A DNA stretch of 58,998 nucleotides, filler included, from Basidioascus undulatus (taxonomy: Eukaryota), in the NCBI GenBank assembly GCA_000826855.1. It is 9 parts of 9 records of this genome, joined end to end, with 100 filler letters (N's around TTAATTAATTAA, not from the genome) between each part and the next. Parts side by side here need not be neighbours in the genome. Positions count along the whole stretch, not along the records: positions 45,993 to 52,446 come from JTLS01001738.1; 8 more parts are not named here. One strand, written 5' to 3'. How positions within the stretch are numbered: position 1 is the first letter of the stretch; each line of letters starts with the position of its first letter. Made by a program: the position numbers and the translations under genes. Shown one piece after another: positions 42,922-54,172 of this stretch. The notes below the pieces were generated by a model that saw only the letters and a list, made by a program, of their open reading frames with translations, searched no databases and had not been told where the DNA came from.

Positions 42922-44437
42922 CGTAAGGGCTGATCGAGCGTGGCAAGCTAGAACAAATCGGTGCTCTAACACCCCGAAATTATCTGAACACAAACCCCGC
43001 GGCTTCCTCAAGGAAGTAACTCACGATTATCTGAATGTAATCCACCCTGGTCGGAATGACAAAAAGAAGGCGAGAGGAGAAGGAAGGCGATCGTGGTGGA
43101 GGAAAAGCGAAGACGCAGGCCAAACGCAGGCTGCCGCTGACGGCTGTGGGCGGGCTCGATCGGTCCGAAGTTGCCGACGCCGGGGCCGATGAACGGCCGC
43201 GGCCTTGCAGAGTCGACGGGCTGAGGGATCGAATCCCATCCAGAGCGCATAATATCCACCGTGCAATTCCGCTTGTGAAGTAAGTTTTATCTGTACTCTG
43301 CCTCTAATTTAATAGGCTAGACTTTTGAAGTGGGCGTCCTGACTGTGGGGGACGCCGTTTGAAGCTGCTTGCAGTCAGCTTTACAGACTCTCTGTGACTG
43401 ATTCTGCAGTGACTGCAAAAGGGATCTACCCCGAGTCTAAATTCTTAAGCCACATACCCAAGAGGTCAAGCATTCGGGCAAGGGGGCTGCAGTAGCCCAG
43501 GTTGGTGGCTACGACATTCCCACGTCCGTATCCTTCTTGTTCAGGGAACATGTCTGAGGAGTTGTGTTTTCCCCAAGTCATTGGGTTAAGGTGCTTCCTA
43601 TCTATCAGCTCAATGCTAAACTACGTTGTATCAGCGAATTGTCGCCGAGGAAGGGAAGACGGGGGTCGAGATTACCAAGACCTCGTCAGGCAGGTCTTGC
43701 CAAAAATGTTGTTTCCCCCTTTCTTTGTTGAAGGCATTGCACTTTTTGTACCTTTCTCTAAGAAGCGGCAACTGAGCCAGGCGTAAGAACGAGTAGTACA
43801 AGGGGCAAAGCCGTAGCTCTGCAGCACTGAACAGACGCGCTGCAAACGATCAGGACTAGGTTAAGGTCAACCCCTCCCAATCTTGCTTCACCGATACACT
43901 TGCTCTTCCTGCATAGACCCTTGGGAGAGGGCAGGGAACCCTACGAAGTATACGACAGAAGCGATGAGTAAAGAAGGGTGTGTGAGGAGTTGACGACCCT
44001 GTGCATGTCACCCCTTTTCCTCGCCTTTTGTCTGGGTCCGACTCCACTTTGTCTAGAGACTGTGCGCGTTAAGGACACGGGACCGTTTCTTCCGTCTAGA
44101 GGCGATGCATGTAAAGCAAGGAAGGCCGGCGGGCTCCAGACTGCGAACCTCTTGCCAAGTGTGTCTCGACACTTCCGCCTCTAGCTTTTTAACGGCTTCT
44201 CAGAAAACCCATTCTATCAGAAAGTTCCTTTCTGTATCATACGCTAATATTTAAGAACAAAGCGCAAAGCAACGAGCCATAAGCGACCCCAGCAGCGCCC
44301 ATGTGAAACTGACTGCGCCCCTGACTCAGCATTTCTCATTTCCTTCCTTGCCGAAGATTTCGACGAGCCTGCTGCTCAAAACGCACCCTCACCATCTTAT
44401 ACCCCCTCACGCACTCGTCCACTCTACACCGCTCACG

Positions 44438-45858
44438 ATGGCGTCGATGCTGAAAACTGCGTCCAAGAAGCGCTCTGCAGACGCGCTGGCGGAGGACTCT
44501 GAGGCGCAGCCGCAGAAGAAGAAGGTGCAGAACAAGCAGCGGGTGCTGATGCTCGCCAACCGGGGCGTCACCCAGCGCATGCGCCACCTCATGGGCGATC
44601 TGGAGGCGTTGTTGCCGCATATCAAGAAAGGTGGGTCCCATCCCCCTCTACCTCCGGTGTACAAGGAATGCCGCGATACTGAACTTGGGTGGGCAGACTC
44701 CAAGCTCTCCTCCTCCACATCACTCCCCGTGCTCAACGAGCTGGCCGACCTGGCATCCTGCAACAACGTCATGTTCTTCCAGGCGCGGCACCACTCGACT
44801 GTCACCGACCTGTACCTTTGGCTGGCCAAGGCGCCCAATGGGCCCTCGGTCAAGTTTCACGTCCAGAACGTGCACACCATGGACGAGCTCAAGATGACCG
44901 GCAACTGCCTCAAGGGCAGCCGCGGCATCCTCAGCTTTGGCGAGGAGTTTGACGGGGAGCCGTGGTTGCAGTTGCTGAAGGAGATGTTTACGCATGTGAG
45001 TCCGCAGGGACGAGGGTGGGAGTGTGGGAGGATGGGGCTGATATGCTGTGACGGGGCAGATGTTTGGCGTCCCCAAGTCCGCCCGCCGGACAAAGCCCTT
45101 CACCGACCACGTCCTCTCCTTCTCCTACCTCGACAGCAAGATCTGGTTCCGCAATTACCAGGTGCGTTCTCCGGCCCCGCTTCCTTTTCCTCCCTCCCCC
45201 CTTCCTTGTCCCCTTGTCCCCCCTTCACCCTCCTTTCTTCCCTCTGCTTCCCTCCCCTCTCTTACCCCTCTTCCCTGTGCGGTGTGCGGTGCGCAGATCG
45301 TCGAGAAGGACCCAACGACGATCAAAGCCGAGCTCGGGTCAAAGAAAAAGTCACCGCAGACGACGCTCGTCGAGATCGGCCCGCGCTTCGTCCTCACCCC
45401 CATCCGCATCTTCGAGGGCTCCTTCGGCGGGCCGACGGTGTTCGCTAACCCTGGTGCGTGCCTTCTTCCACCTTCCTCCTCCTTCCTCCTGCTCCTCCTT
45501 GCCCTACGTTTCCCTCTGCTCCTTCCTGCTCCCCTTCTTCCTCCGTGCTCTTCTGTCCTCCTCCGTCCCTTTCTCTCTTCCCTCCTCCCTTTCCCTCCTC
45601 CTTCCCTTCCCCTATCTCTTCCTCACTCTTTCCCCGCGCACCTTCTCTCATCTCCGAGCTCCAGACCCTGACTCCCTCTTTCTCCCCACAGAATTCGTCG
45701 CCCCCACCGCGATCCGGCGCGAGCAGCGCAAGCTGCAGGGCGCCAAGTACGGCGCGCGCAAGGACGCGGAGCACGACCGCCGCGAGCGCATGGACAAGCT
45801 CCACCAGCGCGATCGCGGGCTCGCGGGCGAGCTGGAGGTGGCGAAGCTGTTTGGGTGA
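44438..45858 (+). CDS. BRX1: Ribosome biogenesis protein Brx1 (Brix domain)
   Basis: NKQRVLMLANRGV…RHLMGDLEALLPH, DLYLWLAKAPNGPSVKFHVQNVHTMDELKMTGNCLKGSR, KPFTDHV…KIWFRNYQ, LVEIGPRFVLTPIRIFEGSFGGPTVF. Four introns. Confidence 0.96.
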
Positions 45859-45892: not shown

Positions 45893-45992
45893 NNNNNNNN
45901 NNNNNNNNNNNNNNNNNNNNNNNNNNNNNNNNNNNNTTAATTAATTAANNNNNNNNNNNNNNNNNNNNNNNNNNNNNNNNNNNNNNNNNNNN
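45893..45992. other. Artificial contig spacer
   Basis: N44-TTAATTAATTAA-N44. Confidence 0.97.
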
Positions 45993-46741
45993 CCATCCCC
46001 AAATATACCTCTCCCTCCTCCCAACCCCCCACACCAACAATACCATAGCTCCTCCCTCTCCAACCCACTCCCGCCCACCTCCTCCTCAAACCTAATCACC
46101 GACGCAGACGGCGACGTCCAAATGGAGCTCATCTCCTCAGACGGCAAAGGCGAATGGCCCGCCCTCCGCCCGCCCCGGTTCTTCGCCCCGCAGGACGCGG
46201 CGCGGACGGGGCTTGAGGGCCTGTTCGGGGGGTTCGGGCTGGACGAAGGCGCTCCCCACTCGCAGGCCCAGCGGCACCCGCAGCCCATAACGATAGAGGG
46301 GTGGGACCTCGCGAAGTGGGTCCCTGCGGCCTTGTGGGCCTGCGCTGCGGCGGACAGGATGCGCGAGCGAGAGGGGCCGTCAGTGTGGGCTTCGTCTGGG
46401 CTGCTCGAGGTCGGCGCGGCGCTGGGGTCGGTGCTGGTCGTCTTCTTTGGCGTCAAAGAGAACCGAGGCCCGCGTTTATCCGTGCGCCCCCCTTCCCTCT
46501 CCTTGCCACCTCCCCATATTCGCTAACTAGAACGCTATACCGCCAGCAGCACCTCGCCCTCGCCTTCGCCCTACTGGGGATAATTCGTATCGCCGCGCTG
46601 CACCCCGCGTTCCCACTCCCGCGCGCGATGTCGGGGATGGAACACGCGGCGGCGGATGGGGCGCTCGCGGGCTTCGGGGGGTTGCTGGCTTTGAACTGGG
46701 GAAGGGACAGGGGGAAGGGCGGGAGGTTGAAGGGAGAATGA
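45993..46741 (+). CDS. C-terminal part of Ima1-like inner nuclear membrane protein (5'-truncated)
   Basis: LRPPRFFAPQD…TGLEGLF resembles the fungal Ima1 C-terminal motif and is followed by several hydrophobic segments. One intron lies at ~46474-46546. Confidence 0.5.
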
Positions 46742-47064
46742 ACATTTTTTGGGCTCTTCGAGAAGAGAGTTTGGGGAGCTGCGCTTCAAATGCGGGATGG
46801 CAGTAAGGTGCTTCGGGAGACTTTAGTACGCTGAAGGAGGCAGTTAAAGGCCGGCTTGGCCAGGGCGTGAGCAGCTCTGCTGAGATTCGTTGTGATGGGT
46901 GGGGGCTGGGACGCAAGAGGGCAGTGGGAGCCATTCGCGCTGACGTTGTGCGGTCGGGAGCGTTCAACATGGTTCGACTGTCATTATGGCCAATCCTGTT
47001 TCGCATGTACTTCTTCCCGGCTTTCGTGCAAGCATATGCGAACTGCGTGTTCAAGCGATGCATG

Positions 47065-47870
47065 CTAGGCGCTTTCGGGCGCGCCACGGAAGCCAATGCA
47101 AACGAAGTAGCCCTCCCCGCTCTCTTTCCTGCTCGCCTCCGGCTTCTCGTAAAGGACGCGATCGAAGCGGGGCATGAGTCGCTCTTTTCGAAACTTGGTG
47201 GCCCCGGTCGAAGCGAAGTGCTTGATGCTGAGGGAGAGGATTGCGCGTGAGAAGGGTAGGTCGCAAGGCAAGCGGAATTGAATTGGACGTACATGAGCAC
47301 CGACGAAGACCCAGCGCGCCGCTTGCTGCTCTTCTTCTTGCTCGCGTCCGGAGACAAGGCGTCGAGGGTGGGGTCGATGGAAGGCTCTGGATCCGGCCGT
47401 CGGTCGACGCGGAGGTTCTGGACGGCAAAGTCGAGCGCCGCCTCGCACAGCTCAAGCGAGGCCTCCTCGTCCCTGATCTTATTCCCCGAGATGCTGGGCG
47501 CCATATCGCTCAGGACAACGTCGACCTTATCCTGTCCAAGCAGCGCGCAAACGCGCGCGCGAACGCGGGGATCGAGAAAGTCGCCTTGAACCACCTCGGC
47601 GCCGGGGACGGGCTGGATCGGGAGGAGGTCGACGCCGACGACTTTGCGCGAGCGCGGCGCGGCGATTTCGAGCCACCCTCCGGGGGCGGCGCCGAGGTCG
47701 ACGACTACCCGCGAGGGGGAGAGGAACCGGTAGGCGGCGTCCAGCTGCTGTAGCTTCGGCGCGGCGCGAGAGCGGAAGGAGGTGAGCCCTGTGCGGTAGG
47801 GGTCGCGCTTTTGGCGGGCGAGGTAGCGGTTCGAGGAGGCAGAGGTCGCTGGGCGTGAGAAAGAGGACAT
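47065..47870 (-). CDS. MRM2: FtsJ/RlmE-family mitochondrial rRNA 2'-O-methyltransferase moiety, in frame with upstream MTQ1 moiety
   Basis: SSNRYLARQKRDPY…FRSRAAPKL, VVDLGAAPGGW, GVDLLP, QGDF, VVLSDMAP, IKHF and KPEASRKESGEGY show the K-D-K-E tetrad is present. One intron lies near 47290-47229. Confidence 0.9.
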
Positions 47871-48986
47871 GAGAGAGGGGAGGAGGGGAGGCCGAGCCCA
47901 ATGCGAGAGAAATGCGAGAGGGGATAGAAGCGGAGAGGCGAGGTGCCTCGCGGACGCGGAAAGGGTGCTGTAGTTTCGGCGCTGCCCATGCGGCTCGAAC
48001 GTCGCACAGACAACCCTATCGAAGTCCCCGTAGGGATCCACCCATGACTCGACGTTCGGAGCGGCAGGAGACTGTCGCATGATCCGGGAGACGTCTGGCG
48101 CCTGACCGCGCCCGACCTCCATGACGAGCCTCCCTGGGCCCGAAGGCCGCAGCAGCTGAGGAGCGATCTCCGCCAAGCGATGATAGAACCTCAATCCGCC
48201 GACCAGCGCGCCGACGTCCTCCCAATCCCGCACCTCGGGCGAGAGCCCCGCGTACTCCTCTTCCGTCACATACGGTGGGTTGGCAGTGATGACGTCCCAT
48301 CCCTCACCCGCGTCCGGACCGTGCGCAAGCTCCTCCGCGAAGTCAGGCCGGAGCACGTCGCGTTGTACGACAGAGACGCGATCGGAAACGTTCGATTGCG
48401 AGGCGTTCTCGCGAGCAAGCGAGCAGGACGAGCGGGAGAGATCGACGAGGGTGCAGCGCGCGTGAGGGAGAAAGTGCGCGAGGAGGAGCCCGACACAGCC
48501 GGACCCTGTGAAGAGGTCGAGGATTCGAAGAGGGGTTTGTGGTAGGGATGAGAGGTTCGAGGCGAGATCGAGCGTCCACTGCTCGGTTTCTGGACGAGGA
48601 ATGAGCGTCGGCGGTCGGACGCGTAGAAGCAGGGGACCGAATGGTTGGGTGCCTTTTAAAGAGCGGTTCAATTGTCAAATTTCGATGTGAACTTCAGAAT
48701 CCTGGGCAGCGGATTACCGAGGATGTATTGCAAAGGCTTCCCAGCGACACGATCGGCCACCATCGCCTCCAGACGACCAGGCGCGAGGGGCGTGCCAGTC
48801 AAGCCCTCTTGCTCGAGCGCCTCGCACATCCACCTGAGCTCGCTCGACGCGTCTTCGGGACCCAGTGCGGACGAAAGCCGGGCGAGGAGAGGATCGCTGG
48901 ATGCCTGCGATGCCGCAGATACGCTGCGGGTGAGAAGTCGTCGACCTCGCAGTGCGCAGGCTCTCCCCGCCCGCAACAGCGAGCAT
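47871..48986 (-). CDS. MTQ1: HemK/PrmC-family mitochondrial release factor glutamine methyltransferase moiety plus linker, with no stop before MRM2
   Basis: ELRWM, RVAGKPLQYILG|TQPFGPL…RPPTLIPRPETEQW, LDLFTGSGCVG, ITANPPYV, EVRDWEDVGALVGGLRFY, MEVGRGQA, DPYGDFDRVV. The start codon is uncertain. Confidence 0.9.
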
Positions 48987-49539
48987 GGCGCCCGGACTAG
49001 AAATGAGACCAATCAATAAGCCTCAAATCAGCTTGCACATGAAAGACTCTGGCGCACCGTCTGAAAGTAGACTGGACAGCAGCATGAGCACGCCCCTCGA
49101 TCGTGCGGGTATTCTCCACCTCCAGCTGGTGCAGAATTAGCCGTCCTGCGGTCTAGTATGGATGCGGTCGCCTTTTGACGAAGTTATGTGCTTCGTGAAA
49201 GAAAGCAGGGATGGTGAAAGGCAAGGGACGGAGTCTTCTGAGGAGGGAAGGCTCGTCTGTCTCGGGTCACGTGATTTTCGTTTTTTCATAAAGACCGAAA
49301 ATCGATCTTTCCATGCAGCGGTTTGATTCTTGGTGTGAGTCCAAGTGGAAATTGAAACAAAAATGAGTGCGTGAATGGACTGCACCCGTATTACAACAAT
49401 CGAGGTGGACGTACTCACCAGCTGAACGTGTTGGACTCAGGTGTCTTGCACTACAGCTTGTTCCCGTGAAGCACGGGAAGAGTCATAAATAAGTTTCTTG
49501 TGTTAAGTTATATGCTGGCCGAAGTCAAGTCCATTTTCA

Positions 49540-51300
49540 GGGCCTTGAACTATCCCCTACCATCTGTGGTGGCCTCGCAGGCTGGAAGACGCCTTGCAGT
49601 GGGCAGAACGCAGGCCGCACACGGCTCGACAGAGCAGACGTGGAGGACGGCAGATGCATGACATGACCAGATACGAGCGAAGAGGATTGAAATTCGTAAA
49701 CCGAGATAGTCGGGGAGGACAGAGTCGAGCTGGGAGGGTTGAACCTATGAAGAGAGAAGGTGCTGTATGGTGACGGAGGTTGAACCCCGCACATGCAGAA
49801 AGAGTACGCTGCACCCCGACCAAGGCGATATAGGGTGAACATTGTTCTGGTCAAGAGAACTCGCCCACCTGAAGAAGAACGGGTCAGGTTAAACCGTCAC
49901 CGAAGATAAGCCGTCTCCGTCCCACTTACGCTAGGACCGAAATGCTCTCCGTCCGCTAGCTCGTGGAGGACAGATCCGTAACAGGAGGTAGCACAGTCTC
50001 AGTCGAGTAGTCATCTTATAGATCCGAATGTTGCTTCCCCTCAAAGCAGCCGTTGTTTTCCCACCAGCTTATGCCTGATTTCCATCGTCAGTTTTACACC
50101 CTCCTCAACTATAGGGCAATGTGAACCTGAGGAGTAGTCCGAGACGAAGAAGGACACTTCTCAGCTCAACACATTTCAGTCCCACCTGGACTGCCGTGAC
50201 AGAGGGAGCCACATACCGATGCTGACAATGGCGATGGGCGATGGCTGACTGAAAAGACGTGGTGAGGACGTAGCTTCTCCCAGAGTTTACCCATAGGGTA
50301 GGAGAGCAGTTGGACGATGTAGATGCTCAAGCTGCGCAGTGCGCACGGCGGCGTGATAAGCACAACCTCCTTCCCGCCTTTCTTTGGAGTAACGCACGTA
50401 ACTTAGACAAGACCATATCGGCACAGAAGGAAGCCTTGCTACGTGCTGAAGAACTGGTTGACGGCCGAGACGCTGCAGGCAGGCAGTTGTCATGGTCTTT
50501 TTCCGGGAGCGCTTACGACATACCCTCCGGCCCAGATAAGCCAATCACCCATGCCCTTACAGTCGAAACAGGGAGTGTCGGATCGTCGGTGTTGTCGACA
50601 GCGGCGCGAACCTGCACGTCGTGCTAATGGACCGTCTTACGCTAAGGTCCATGAACAGCGTACCATGTCGTAAGGCAAGTTGTCCCAAGAAAGAGCGACC
50701 TGGATCTTGAGCTCGCCCTCAATCTTAATTGAACTCCTGTGGGTCGTCTTCGAGGGTCTCGTCGTAACTGTGGATGCACGTGAGTACCCATCCGACTGCA
50801 CATCTCTGACTGAGGTCGTACAGGTATGGCTTGGGGCTTTCGATGATCTGCCCCGAAAAGTGCGGGTTTGAAAGAAGATTCCCAAAATCAGAACGACTGA
50901 GCCTCCTCAGGGTCAGCCTCACAGCAAGACGGTGTGCACCCATGTCATGCTGCTCGACCATCTCGGTGAGAGCCGAAACGAGCTCGTCGCGGGAGATGTG
51001 AGCCGCATGCGCTTCAACCTGCAGTGTGATTTGAGGGCGAATGGTATTTGATAAAGGAGATGTGCACTTACAGCCACAATGTCTTGGCCACAGCTCCGAT
51101 TTCGTGAAGCGCGAGGTCGTCCTGGACCGGGCGCGTTAGCGAGCTCTTCGAAGACCCGCTCGGGCGTGCCTTGCAAGACTCACATCGGCCAAGACGTCGA
51201 TTTCGACTTCCTTGACGAAACCTTGTCCGGGTCTCTTCCATGGCCTTGTGAGCAATGGGTTCGCGGTCGGGCTGGTGGAAAGATTGGGAGAGAAATTCAA
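49540..51300 (-). pseudogene. OPT-family oligopeptide transporter, truncated/decayed
   Basis: DNLPYDM|VRAAVDNTDDPTLPVSTVRAWVIG, AVNQFFS and IVQLLSYPMGKLWEK are classic OPT N-terminal motifs. Downstream sequence has stops and far too little space for the remaining TM helices. Boundaries approximate. Confidence 0.7.
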
Positions 51301-52446
51301 GGACAACCGCACTGCAGTATAGCGGTTTTCATGCGCCCAGTGGCAACGGCGCCTTATCTGTTCCACGATACAGAGCTTTCTTTAAAGAACTGCTCGTGTC
51401 AGGGTACGCGAGACGATGATATGAGGGACTATTTTGATGCAAGGCCGCATGCTACTTCGCTTCGGGCGGCCGTACAATTTTGCGGTCTTTCGAGTCGCGG
51501 CGATGAGACTCAGTGACTGAAGCACCTGGATGAGCCTGAGGTATTATTCTGCTCGTATCTATCTGAGCCATGTTCGAGAATAAAGTACGGGCGAGAAGCA
51601 TGTCGTCCTGCGAAGCACGTCAGCGGCGTACTCAGTGGGCATCAGTAGCAGCCATTCGCGTGGACTCCATTGGCGAGCACCACCGGATCATCATTTTGCG
51701 TGATAGGCAGTTGCTATTTTGATGTTATTCGGTAGTCTTACGACTGTCACCGAACATTCACCTCCGTAGTGCACTATGCTGCACGAGACGGGGAGTCTGG
51801 CAGCTCTGGCTCATCCGTCTTCGACAGTGTCAGTGTCGACTCTGACCGCCGCTCGTCCCCACTGGAAGCGCGGAAGTCACCAAAAATACAAAATCTTGTC
51901 TTAAATGGAAAAGGGAGAGGATTTCCAAATGCGGAGGAGGCCATTGGAAGTACGAAGAACCAACCCATTCGCCTGCAGCGGCGCGCGGCGATGCAACACA
52001 CAGCTCGACTGCTGGCAGCGGGTGGGAAAGACGTACTGTGAACCTCGAATTTGCGAAGCTCCCCAAGCGGATGGAATACTACTTCCAAACGACTGTATCC
52101 AATTATGGGCGATAATGCGCTCTCTCGGGCAAGACTTCGTACTGCCAGTCAGAAATTTCAACCCACGGATGCTTGCGACATGCCATTTTTGGTTGTAAGC
52201 TCCAGCGCCGTCTGCAACACGACGACAGCATGTGGAGGAGGACAGTGCAGTAACACACCCAGCGCCGTATCGGGCCAGTATCGTCTGCATGATCAGGCAT
52301 GTCAGACCTGCTTGCATTCAAACGAGATGGGCGCAGCCGTGTCAGCACCGACTGAGCAAGTAGCCCAGCATCCCACCGCACAACCGTCCGATACCTCAGT
52401 ACAATGACCCCCCGCGCTAGACCAATCTCCCCACCTCCCCTGCCTT

Positions 52447-52546
52447 NNNNNNNNNNNNNNNNNNNNNNNNNNNNNNNNNNNNNNNNNNNNTTAATTAATT
52501 AANNNNNNNNNNNNNNNNNNNNNNNNNNNNNNNNNNNNNNNNNNNN
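52447..52546. other. Artificial contig spacer
   Basis: N44-TTAATTAATTAA-N44. Confidence 0.97.
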
Positions 52547-53878
52547 CCTCCTCCCCCCCCCCCCCCCTTCTCGCGCTTCCACTCGACGAACTCGTCTATG
52601 AGCGAGGGCCCTGCCGCACCGCAACCCGTATGTCAGCCAGCCGCTTCGCAGCGAAAAAGGATGGTGCGGAGGGAGAGGGAGGAAGGCGAGCACGCACACG
52701 CCGCGGACTCGTCATAGCCGCCGAGGTCGGGCTGGACCGTGTCCAGGAACACGCCGACCATGTTCCACGAGTCCTTGGTGAGTCTTGCGCATCGTGTCGG
52801 TCAAGCATGTCAGCTTGGGTTTCCGTGCGCCTTGGGAGATGATCGCGGAGGAACAAACGCACCCCTTCAGCTTCTCCTTGCTCTCGAGGAACTCAACGAG
52901 CTCCGACCCAAGCGCGCCGTACCGCGGCGGGAGCGTGAGTGCCCAGAGCGGCTTGACCATGTCGATGTCGAGGCTCTTCTGCTCGCCGCGCGCCCACTGA
53001 TATGCCCGCCTGTCAGAGCGGTCAATTGATTGGCTTGAGGGTTAGCCCAGAAACAAGTACGCACGTTGAACAGCCACGCATAGAAGTCCTTCCACTTCTC
53101 GCCCCCTCCGAGCGCCTTGGTGTCCTTGACCACCTGCTTCGCGAGCGCATCGAGCGACGCGATCTTGTGCACAGCGAGAAAGTTGAGGAAGCCCTCCGAG
53201 CGTATCTCGCCTGAACGGAGTGCGGAAGATATCAGTCAGTTGAGGTGAAAGCGTGCGGGAAAGGTCGAAGACGCACCCATCTGCTTGCTGCCCGTCGACC
53301 AGCCCAGCACGATCGGCTCGAGCCCCTCCATCGAGATCTTGGCGTCGGTACAGAGGCGCTCGAGTCCCTCCGCAGCGATCAGGTCCACGTCGTCCTCGTC
53401 CGCGTACTTCTTGAAAATGGTCTGCGGAAGTAGCTTTACGCATTAGCGTTCACAGCGAGACCGGCCTGCAACAGATAACGCACCTGCGCGGCGCTTGCGT
53501 GGTACTTCTGCTTCTTGGGGCTGACCACCTTGACCTCCTCATCGTCCTCCTCCACCGCCGGCGCCGGCGCTGCCTTCTTCCTGCTGGTGCTGCCCTTCGC
53601 GGTCGCCTTCTTGGCGGGCGCGGCCGCCTTGGTCGTCCTCGTCGAGGCCTTGCGCATCTTCGCCGCCGGCGGCGCGGGCGCGGGGTCGTCGTCTGAGGAC
53701 AGCTGGATGGTCTTGGCCGTTTTCTTGGAGGACGAAGCGGCGGTCGAGCTGCGGGTCGTACGCGTCGACTTCTTAGGCTCCCCCGTCGCGGCGGTGGCGG
53801 CCTTACGCTATGTAATCAAAGCGCGAGCTCAGATAAGGTTGCGTGCGGGTTTGGCTGGATGCGCACCTTGGGAGGCAT
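52547..53878 (-). CDS. DCN1-like (PONY/cullin-binding domain) neddylation E3, stop just beyond contig end
   Basis: Basic disordered N-terminus, then IFKKYADEDDVDLIAAEGLERLCTDAKISMEG, DFYAWLFN, QKSLDIDMVKPLWAL, TKDSWNMV…DLGGYDESA|…SLIDEFVEW. Confidence 0.88.
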
Positions 53879-54172
53879 GACAGAGAAGAGCCGCTTGAAC
53901 GAAGTGAGGAGGCCTATGGCTGGCGACAGGACGGCAGAGAGTCGGGTGAGTTGGGCTGCTCCCGGCGACGATCTTTCAGTCATGCTCCCATCTCTGTCCG
54001 AGCTTCAAGCTTACTTTGAGTGGTTTGTAGGCGACCAGTCAGTAGCGAGGCGGATGATGCTCGGTGGGCAAGCGGCGGCGAGAGGCCGGTCCAGCGAGAA
54101 GGAAGACACTTGCGGGCGTTTCTAGGCGACCCTAATAATGAATCCAATACAAAGCAAGTAGATGTATAGTAG

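Follow-up and report, generated by a model that had tools for sequence, protein, structure and literature searches.

The window analysed here is a 58,998-nucleotide (nt) stretch of DNA from the fungus Basidioascus undulatus (GenBank assembly GCA_000826855.1), and its minus strand holds a gene in which a HemK/MTQ1-type methyltransferase runs on, in one reading frame, into an FtsJ/MRM2-type methyltransferase. HemK/MTQ1 is the release-factor GGQ glutamine methyltransferase, and FtsJ/MRM2 is the 2'-O-methyltransferase of the A-loop of large-subunit rRNA. We consider it very likely that this is a genuine, expressed MTQ1-MRM2 fusion gene in a basidiomycete-like fungus. The gene extends from 49085 to 47065, has four exons and three introns, and encodes a product of 609 amino acids (aa). 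The order of parts in the product is a presequence-like, arginine-rich stretch, a complete HemK/MTQ1 domain, a linker of ~55-60 residues that is free of acidic residues and predicted to be disordered, and a complete FtsJ/MRM2 domain. RNA that carries the MTQ1 exons continues into the MRM2 coding sequence, with no stop between the two.

Gene structure and transcript evidence

An earlier note on this DNA, made from the sequence alone, had described a single frame leading from HemK/MTQ1 into FtsJ/MRM2. This frame is open: translation of 47294-48650 on the minus strand gives 452 residues with zero stops, and both domains are recognised by Pfam within a single exon, exon 3. The note had bounded the feature at 47065 and 48986. 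Its stop at 47065 is borne out, while its start is wrong, the true span being 47065-49085. The ATG at 48986 belongs to the frame of the open reading frame (ORF) 48714..49016, whereas the HemK frame is that of ORF 48668..49012, and within exon 2 the HemK frame holds no ATG upstream of the conserved N-domain. The frame is restored by exon 1, which begins at ATG 49085, together with a 61-nt GT..AG intron, and the result is an arginine-rich N-terminus. An in-frame stop lies upstream of the exon 1 start, and the 123-nt leader (49208-49086) contains no ATG. The features of the gene, all on the minus strand, are as follows.

49058..49085, minus strand: exon 1, 28 nt, with start codon ATG at 49085-49083 (gene model and RNA-derived contig joint 48996>49058)
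48997..49057, minus strand: intron 1, 61 nt, GT..AG (the joint in run X3 skips 61 nt, CT..AC on the plus strand)
48718..48996, minus strand: exon 2, the rest of the presequence-like N-terminus and a PrmC_N-like region ending GKPLQYILG (ORF, Pfam, gene model)
48653..48717, minus strand: intron 2, 65 nt, GT..AG (the X3 joint skips 65 nt)
47293..48652, minus strand: exon 3, 1360 nt, holding the HemK/MTQ1 catalytic domain, the linker and most of FtsJ/MRM2 (translation, Pfam, X3 record 4)
47994..48650, minus strand: HemK/MTQ1 methyltransferase domain, ending DRVVCATFE at 48020-47994 (Pfam and PDB matches)
47829..47993, minus strand: linker, model residues 323-377, holding RRNYST and Met364 at 47870-47868 (composition, AlphaFold 2 (AF2) model)
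47228..47292, minus strand: intron 3, 65 nt, GT..AG, within the FtsJ domain (X3 joint 47227>47293)
47065..47227, minus strand: exon 4 (gene model)
47065..47828, minus strand: FtsJ/MRM2 domain, model residues 378-609, split by intron 3, with stop codon TAG at 47067-47065 (Pfam, PDB, alignment)

Model residues 10-43 are rich in arginine, lack acidic residues and are presequence-like. A crude presequence filter (net charge of at least 3, no Asp or Glu, hydrophobic moment of at least 0.40) is passed by 19 of the 592 segments of the protein scanned, 17 of them at residues 10-43, one at 327 and one at 547. Such an N-terminal presequence would import the whole chain into the mitochondrial matrix, with MRM2 riding in on the signal of MTQ1. 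As a side observation, ATG 48986 opens an out-of-frame ORF of ~90 codons (48986-48714, minus strand) over exon 2, and since a pyrimidine occupies position -3 of the start codon at 49085, leaky scanning to ATG 48986 is conceivable.

Three public sequencing runs hold this stretch: X1 and X2, which come from two studies, and X3, labelled 'DNA?', which shares its sample with X2. X1 and X2 each cover 46900-49150 with one contig that shows no differing letters and no gaps. The contigs of X3 have joints at 47227>47293, 48651>48717 and 48996>49058, skipping 65, 65 and 61 nt respectively, each with CT..AC on the plus strand. Because its contigs skip exactly the three predicted introns, X3 is taken to be derived from RNA. 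Its record 4 (1293 nt) comprises the leader (reaching 58 nt beyond 49150), exons 1 and 2 joined to the entire HemK domain and linker, and then 80 nt of sequence beyond Met364. It is unbroken across 48651-47790, so that the RNA is unspliced over 47870-48000, the interval for which the earlier note had asked for unspliced reads. Record 3 joins 47721-47293 to 47227-47115. The absence of a stop or indel after DRVVCATF, on which the note's account depended, is upheld by contigs from three runs and two studies that are identical to the window over the linker. An intron in the linker that would give MTQ1 its own stop was considered and rejected, since no GTRNGT-type donor is present there and the RNA contig is unspliced; the only donor-like strings near the linker are GTTGTC at 48011 and GTCCGC at 47955.

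Several points weigh against a genuine fusion. The window itself may have been built from X1 and X2, which are hence weak as independent checks of the sequence. No single RNA contig spans the whole ORF, as X3 leaves 47722-47789 uncovered. The contigs show no transcript ends, and leave room for an extra, shorter MRM2 mRNA. The fusion is absent from all named relatives, and the nearest MRM2 relatives in a tree of this half, P0148 and P0191 (84% support in the Shimodaira-Hasegawa-like approximate likelihood ratio test, SH-aLRT), are unfused, each with its own Met and presequence. The uncovered interval contains the codon of K402 (within 47774-47751), which any functional MRM2 needs, and the gap is therefore a matter of assembly rather than a transcript boundary. 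The position of unfused P0148 and P0191 as nearest relatives implies that the fusion is young or has been lost elsewhere.

An artefact, in which two truly separate genes lost the MTQ1 stop, or their proper frame, to an indel of sequencing or assembly, would account for the lack of fused forms among named relatives, and would also fit DNA runs that agree with the assembly because they may be its source. Against this, the three runs from two studies are identical over the linker without gaps, and record 4 of X3 comes from a different, RNA-derived library. Moreover, 55-60 linker codons are crossed without loss of the frame, which leads on into a fully conserved MRM2 domain, and the same fused order is found in an independent organism, in an unnamed 489-aa protein (P0002) encoded on a 1783-nt Logan contig. 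We regard an artefact as very improbable indeed.

The two methyltransferase domains and their relatives

The HemK/MTQ1-type domain is complete and its motifs are intact. In the translation of exon 3, the Pfam families MTS (2.8e-09) and Methyltransf_25 (7.7e-11) match residues 28-131, both above their cut-offs. Motif I (LDLFTGSG) at 48521-48498 and NPPY at 48281-48270 are found exactly where the earlier note had placed them. NPPY, which is the substrate-amide binding motif, corresponds to model residues 227-230. It aligns with the NPPY of 4dzr, a release-factor-specific glutamine N5-methyltransferase that is also the best PDB match of the HemK half (5.8e-25); E. coli HemK (1t43/2b3t) matches at 5e-14. 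The preceding region matches PrmC_N (PF17827) with E=0.0023 and 18.9 bits against a cut-off of 23.4, the match being confined to the last 19 residues of the profile, and the conserved GKPLQYILG is present at the end of this region.

As in Mtq1 of S. cerevisiae, human HEMK1 and bacterial PrmC, the domain is a class-I S-adenosylmethionine methyltransferase with motif I and NPPY, and with a PrmC_N-like region before it. Its named homologues are basidiomycete release-factor methyltransferases. It differs from the PrmC family in that its PrmC_N match lies below the Pfam cut-off, and from Mtq1, HEMK1 and PrmC in that no stop follows the domain and a second enzyme comes after it. The HemK half is predicted from these resemblances to methylate the GGQ glutamine of a mitochondrial release factor.

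In the second half, Pfam recognises FtsJ (PF01728) at residues 292-415 of the exon 3 translation (3.1e-36, 125.4 bits against a cut-off of 24.1). The profile match stops at position 131 of 181, where intron 3 falls, and the remainder is encoded in exon 4. The K-D-K-E residues, which we take to be the catalytic tetrad of FtsJ/MRM2 enzymes, are K402, D485, K558 and E594. They are intact, in agreement with the earlier note: the first three are invariant in a 17-row alignment, and E594 is present in 15 of the 16 rows that reach its column, P0191 having K there and P0163 being too short to reach it. Matches in the PDB, at E-values close to one another, include FTSJ3 (1.5e-20), E. coli FtsJ (1eiz, 1.9e-20) and human mitochondrial MRM2 (9hcg, 1.3e-18; also 7o9k). 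In the MRM2 tree, which was built without Trm7 or Spb1 rows, the window lies within a 27-row clade (97% SH-aLRT) of basidiomycete proteins, some carrying the name 'rRNA methyltransferase 2, mitochondrial', and the FtsJ half accordingly appears by sequence to belong to the mitochondrial MRM2 branch and not to cytosolic or nucleolar Trm7/Spb1.

The FtsJ domain and the positions of K-D-K-E are held in common with S. cerevisiae Mrm2, human MRM2 and E. coli RlmE. Unlike these enzymes, the FtsJ half has no presequence-bearing N-terminus of its own and is joined to MTQ1 by a ~55-residue linker. A further difference is that the third catalytic residue is preceded by an insertion of ~30 residues (window 47400-47300, model ~518-552) in which Pro, Asp, Ser and Lys abound. 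This insertion is partly common to unfused P0148, is absent from bacterial RlmE, and has a low predicted local distance difference test score (pLDDT).

The note had also held that the two enzymes are separate elsewhere, and every named fungal homologue seen is indeed single-domain, among them proteins of Botryobasidium, Exidia, Sistotremastrum, Abortiporus, Malassezia, Tulasnella, Serendipita and Mycena. A word-index search gave 1797 proteins at E<=0.001 among 8000 scored candidates, and among the best 120 of these P0002 alone extends over both halves (92% of the query), none of the remaining 119 covering more than 50%. An exhaustive search of 1.84 billion representative proteins returned 34,648 at E<=0.001. 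Ten proteins among the best 150 of these, namely all nine of at least 400 aa and one of 365 aa, were scanned with Pfam. P0002 has the order HemK-FtsJ, P0125 has the order FtsJ-PrmC_N-HemK, and each of the other eight is without one family. The fusion is thus rare, with one same-order and one reverse-order case among the matches examined. No further fused forms were found among the best 120 of 168 matches to P0002 (E<=1e-20), or among 14 matches to P0262, a member of the P0125 cluster. A metagenome scan with P0001 reduced 139 pattern matches to two confirmed loci, and neither of them, L001 (39% identity, HemK half only) or L002 (a weak match of 70 residues), shows fusion or adjacency. The ten best matches in the ESM Atlas are all HemK-type only and none has both families; with scores of at most 0.87 they are leads only.

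On conservation of the fusion, which the earlier note had proposed to look for in relatives, the outcome is divided: no named relative carries MTQ1-MRM2, and P0002 has it in the same order. P0002 is 36% identical to the fused protein by BLASTP and 44% by phmmer. Like the fused gene, it has HemK followed by FtsJ with a Ser/Arg-rich junction; unlike it, the junction is ~25-30 residues shorter and the N-terminus is truncated. P0002 also differs at about residues 143-146, where it has NPAY and the window and the HemK family have NPPY; alteration or relaxation of its release-factor methylase half is conceivable. Under approximately unbiased (AU) tests, trees holding the window and P0002 together were 7.05 and 8.88 log-likelihood units better than those from short free searches, and p-AU was 0.67 for each half. 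A single fusion event shared with P0002, which is a long branch, is therefore compatible with the data. Both trees were made by a quick method, the HemK tree being unresolved and the MRM2 tree largely so, and neither shows whether the window and P0002 share one fusion event.

The reverse-order cluster consists of three unnamed members of 573-644 aa (P0125, P0262 and P0263), with P0262 found on 14 contigs. As in the fused gene, a presequence-like N-terminus is followed, within one ORF, by members of both enzyme families. Unlike in the fused gene, the order is reversed (FtsJ, PrmC_N, HemK) and the junction is short and acidic. For their HemK half, the closest protein is an MTRF1L release-factor methyltransferase-like one from a sponge (44%), so the cluster comes from a non-fungal eukaryote. 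It is an independent join of the same two enzymes. No segment of P0002 or P0125 passes the crude presequence filter. As the filter is insensitive, no conclusion is drawn on presequences in these proteins.

Other joined proteins were seen in passing. A three-member cluster from ENA (P0189, P0264 and P0265; 515-517 aa) has a HemK methyltransferase followed by Pept_tRNA_hydro (1e-26) in one ORF, a second case of a release-factor methylase joined to a translation-rescue or termination enzyme. Two annotated MRM2 'fusions', P0113 (789 aa, Tulasnella sp. 331; PF00149 and FtsJ) and P0068 (465 aa, Serendipita sp. 399; PF04588 and FtsJ), may be real fusions or merged gene models.

Possible linker processing and comparison with composite precursors

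The linker was described in the earlier note as acid-free and as beginning with RRNYST at 47981-47964, and both descriptions hold. The longest run without Asp or Glu is 63 residues (model 323-385), a length reached in 117 of 5000 protein shuffles. It contains 13 Ser, 10 Leu, 8 Arg, 8 Ala and 7 Pro. On the coding strand of the DNA that encodes it, 69% of the bases are pyrimidines; elsewhere in the coding sequence the figure is 54%. As CT-rich DNA gives Ser, Leu and Pro codons and excludes GAN (Asp/Glu), the composition of the linker needs no selection for presequence-like character. In an AF2 model built from a 48-row alignment (mean pLDDT 79.3) both domains are confident, while the linker (P0001 residues 226-228 and 231-265) has pLDDT <50 and is predicted to be disordered. 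The pyrimidine-rich linker is most simply read as what was once intergenic, 5' leader and presequence DNA of an adjacent downstream MRM2 gene, captured upon loss of the MTQ1 stop.

Starting at Met364, MRM2 would have only ~11 residues, one of them Arg, ahead of its conserved start, compared with roughly 25-50 in unfused homologues, and for this reason the fusion probably supplies the targeting of MRM2. The same numbers bear on a reading with two overlapping units, in which a short MRM2 mRNA arises from an internal promoter within the CT-rich linker and is translated from Met364 (47870), and the fusion protein is a by-product of the lost MTQ1 stop. A CT-rich tract does lie just upstream of ATG 47870 and resembles the pyrimidine-rich core promoters and leaders of fungal genes; Met364 is close to the conserved MRM2 start, and the nearest MRM2 relatives are unfused. 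However, so short a presequence makes import doubtful, and ATG 47870 has a pyrimidine at -3. The word depth in X3 is 15.7 for the linker contig against 9.5 for the downstream MRM2 contig, which, as far as so poor a measure as contig depth goes, gives no sign of extra downstream transcripts. Even if a short mRNA exists, the long RNA encodes the fusion, as no stop intervenes. Two overlapping units are on balance improbable.

Under the fusion reading, the imported chain would either stay one bifunctional enzyme or be cut in the linker by MPP, the processing peptidase of mitochondria. Cleavage by MPP somewhere within the linker is, in our judgement, a nearly balanced question that leans slightly towards the chain remaining whole, and RRNY/ST is a plausible predicted site. 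A more specific form of the fusion reading, which we put forward tentatively and rate as somewhat less than probable, is a composite precursor cut after import at RRN|Y-ST (R-2, with Tyr then removed by Icp55; or R-3), so that MTQ1 and MRM2 are released as in Arg5,6. Right where the linker begins, RRNYST conforms to R-x-[FYL]-[SA]. The 63-residue acid-free run, unusually long by the shuffles, carries its 8 Arg, and predicted disorder would make the linker accessible. In P0002 the junction likewise has RRSF and only one acidic residue. According to Friedl et al. 2020 (PMC8734313), a strong N-terminal presequence is required for internal MPP cleavage, and the presequence-like N-terminal stretch of the fused protein is strong by the crude filter. 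The composite precursors described in that paper (Arg5,6, Atp25, Etp1, Rsm22-Cox11, SPAC22A12.08c and rice RPS14) have, at their junctions, an MPP motif along with a presequence-like internal segment, as does every one examined there.

Other observations speak against such cleavage. The motif is low in information: R.[FYL][SA] matches at residues 328, 338, 378 and 411, four in the protein against 2.2 expected in shuffles. RRNY of the window and RRSF of P0002 are out of register in the alignment. The 7 prolines of the linker are unfavourable, just one linker segment passes the crude amphipathic filter, and pyrimidine-rich DNA accounts for the linker composition without selection. The reverse-order junction of P0125 is 18 residues long and acidic (FtsJ ends at 262, PrmC_N starts at 281), unlike a cleavable presequence, which suggests that an uncut bifunctional protein is viable.

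Set beside the composite precursors of PMC8734313, the fused gene resembles Arg5,6, Atp25, Rsm22-Cox11 and Etp1 in having two complete proteins of related function in one ORF with one putative N-terminal presequence, and its junction resembles theirs in being acid-free and Arg-containing with an R-x-Y-S motif. It is unlike them in that cleavage of the composite precursors by MPP is reported (PMC8734313), whereas MTQ1-MRM2 is known here from sequence and RNA contigs, and in that its junction composition may simply reflect pyrimidine-rich DNA. Arg5,6 is conserved across fungi (PMC8734313), and the MTQ1-MRM2 fusion is not. The pair is absent from the list of composite precursors in that paper, and the matching passages of PMC1282579 have nothing on a HemK-FtsJ fusion. 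The note had not known of this pairing having been described, and no report of an MTQ1-MRM2 fusion was found in the literature searched either, that is, in papers outside subscription and in the parts of them that were available.

The gene may be described as a lineage-restricted fusion of two ordinary enzymes, which makes its reach modest, and as either a composite mitochondrial precursor or a bifunctional enzyme. Few clues to functional coupling can be had from sequence alone, and gene fusions are among them. The papers searched revealed nothing that connects the mitochondrial release-factor methylase with the methylase of the rRNA A-loop, and the joining of the pair in three lineages and in both orders hints, in a way that can be tested, at co-ordination of the two modifications. 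Should MPP cut the linker, the short list for internal MPP processing would gain a natural substrate; if it is uncut, the product would be a natural bifunctional enzyme in which MRM2 tolerates a 35-kDa N-terminal passenger. The boldest reading combines these ideas: MTQ1-MRM2 would be a new MPP-separated composite precursor, and the pairing in three lineages and both orders would mark real functional coupling, with GGQ-loop methylation and A-loop uridine methylation brought into step, by dose, place or time, late in the maturation of the mitoribosome's peptidyl-transferase centre. We consider this unlikely as a whole.

Genomic surroundings

No second copy of MTQ1 or MRM2 was found within the window by tblastn. 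An ORF with a Brix domain (PF04427, 1.5e-22), a family of ribosome biogenesis, lies at 44255-45448 on the plus strand, convergent with the fused gene in the window. None of the 12 ORFs tested in 50274-53880 has a Pfam match. The G+C content is 58-64% in 46001-50000, which probably explains why so many ORFs overlap on the two strands. Runs of 44 N occur in pairs, the two members 12 bases apart, at intervals of about 6,570 bases from 6485 to 52546 in the window (16 runs, 704 N). They look like regular masking rather than assembly gaps, and the nearest pair, at 45893-45992, is 1 kb downstream of the gene.

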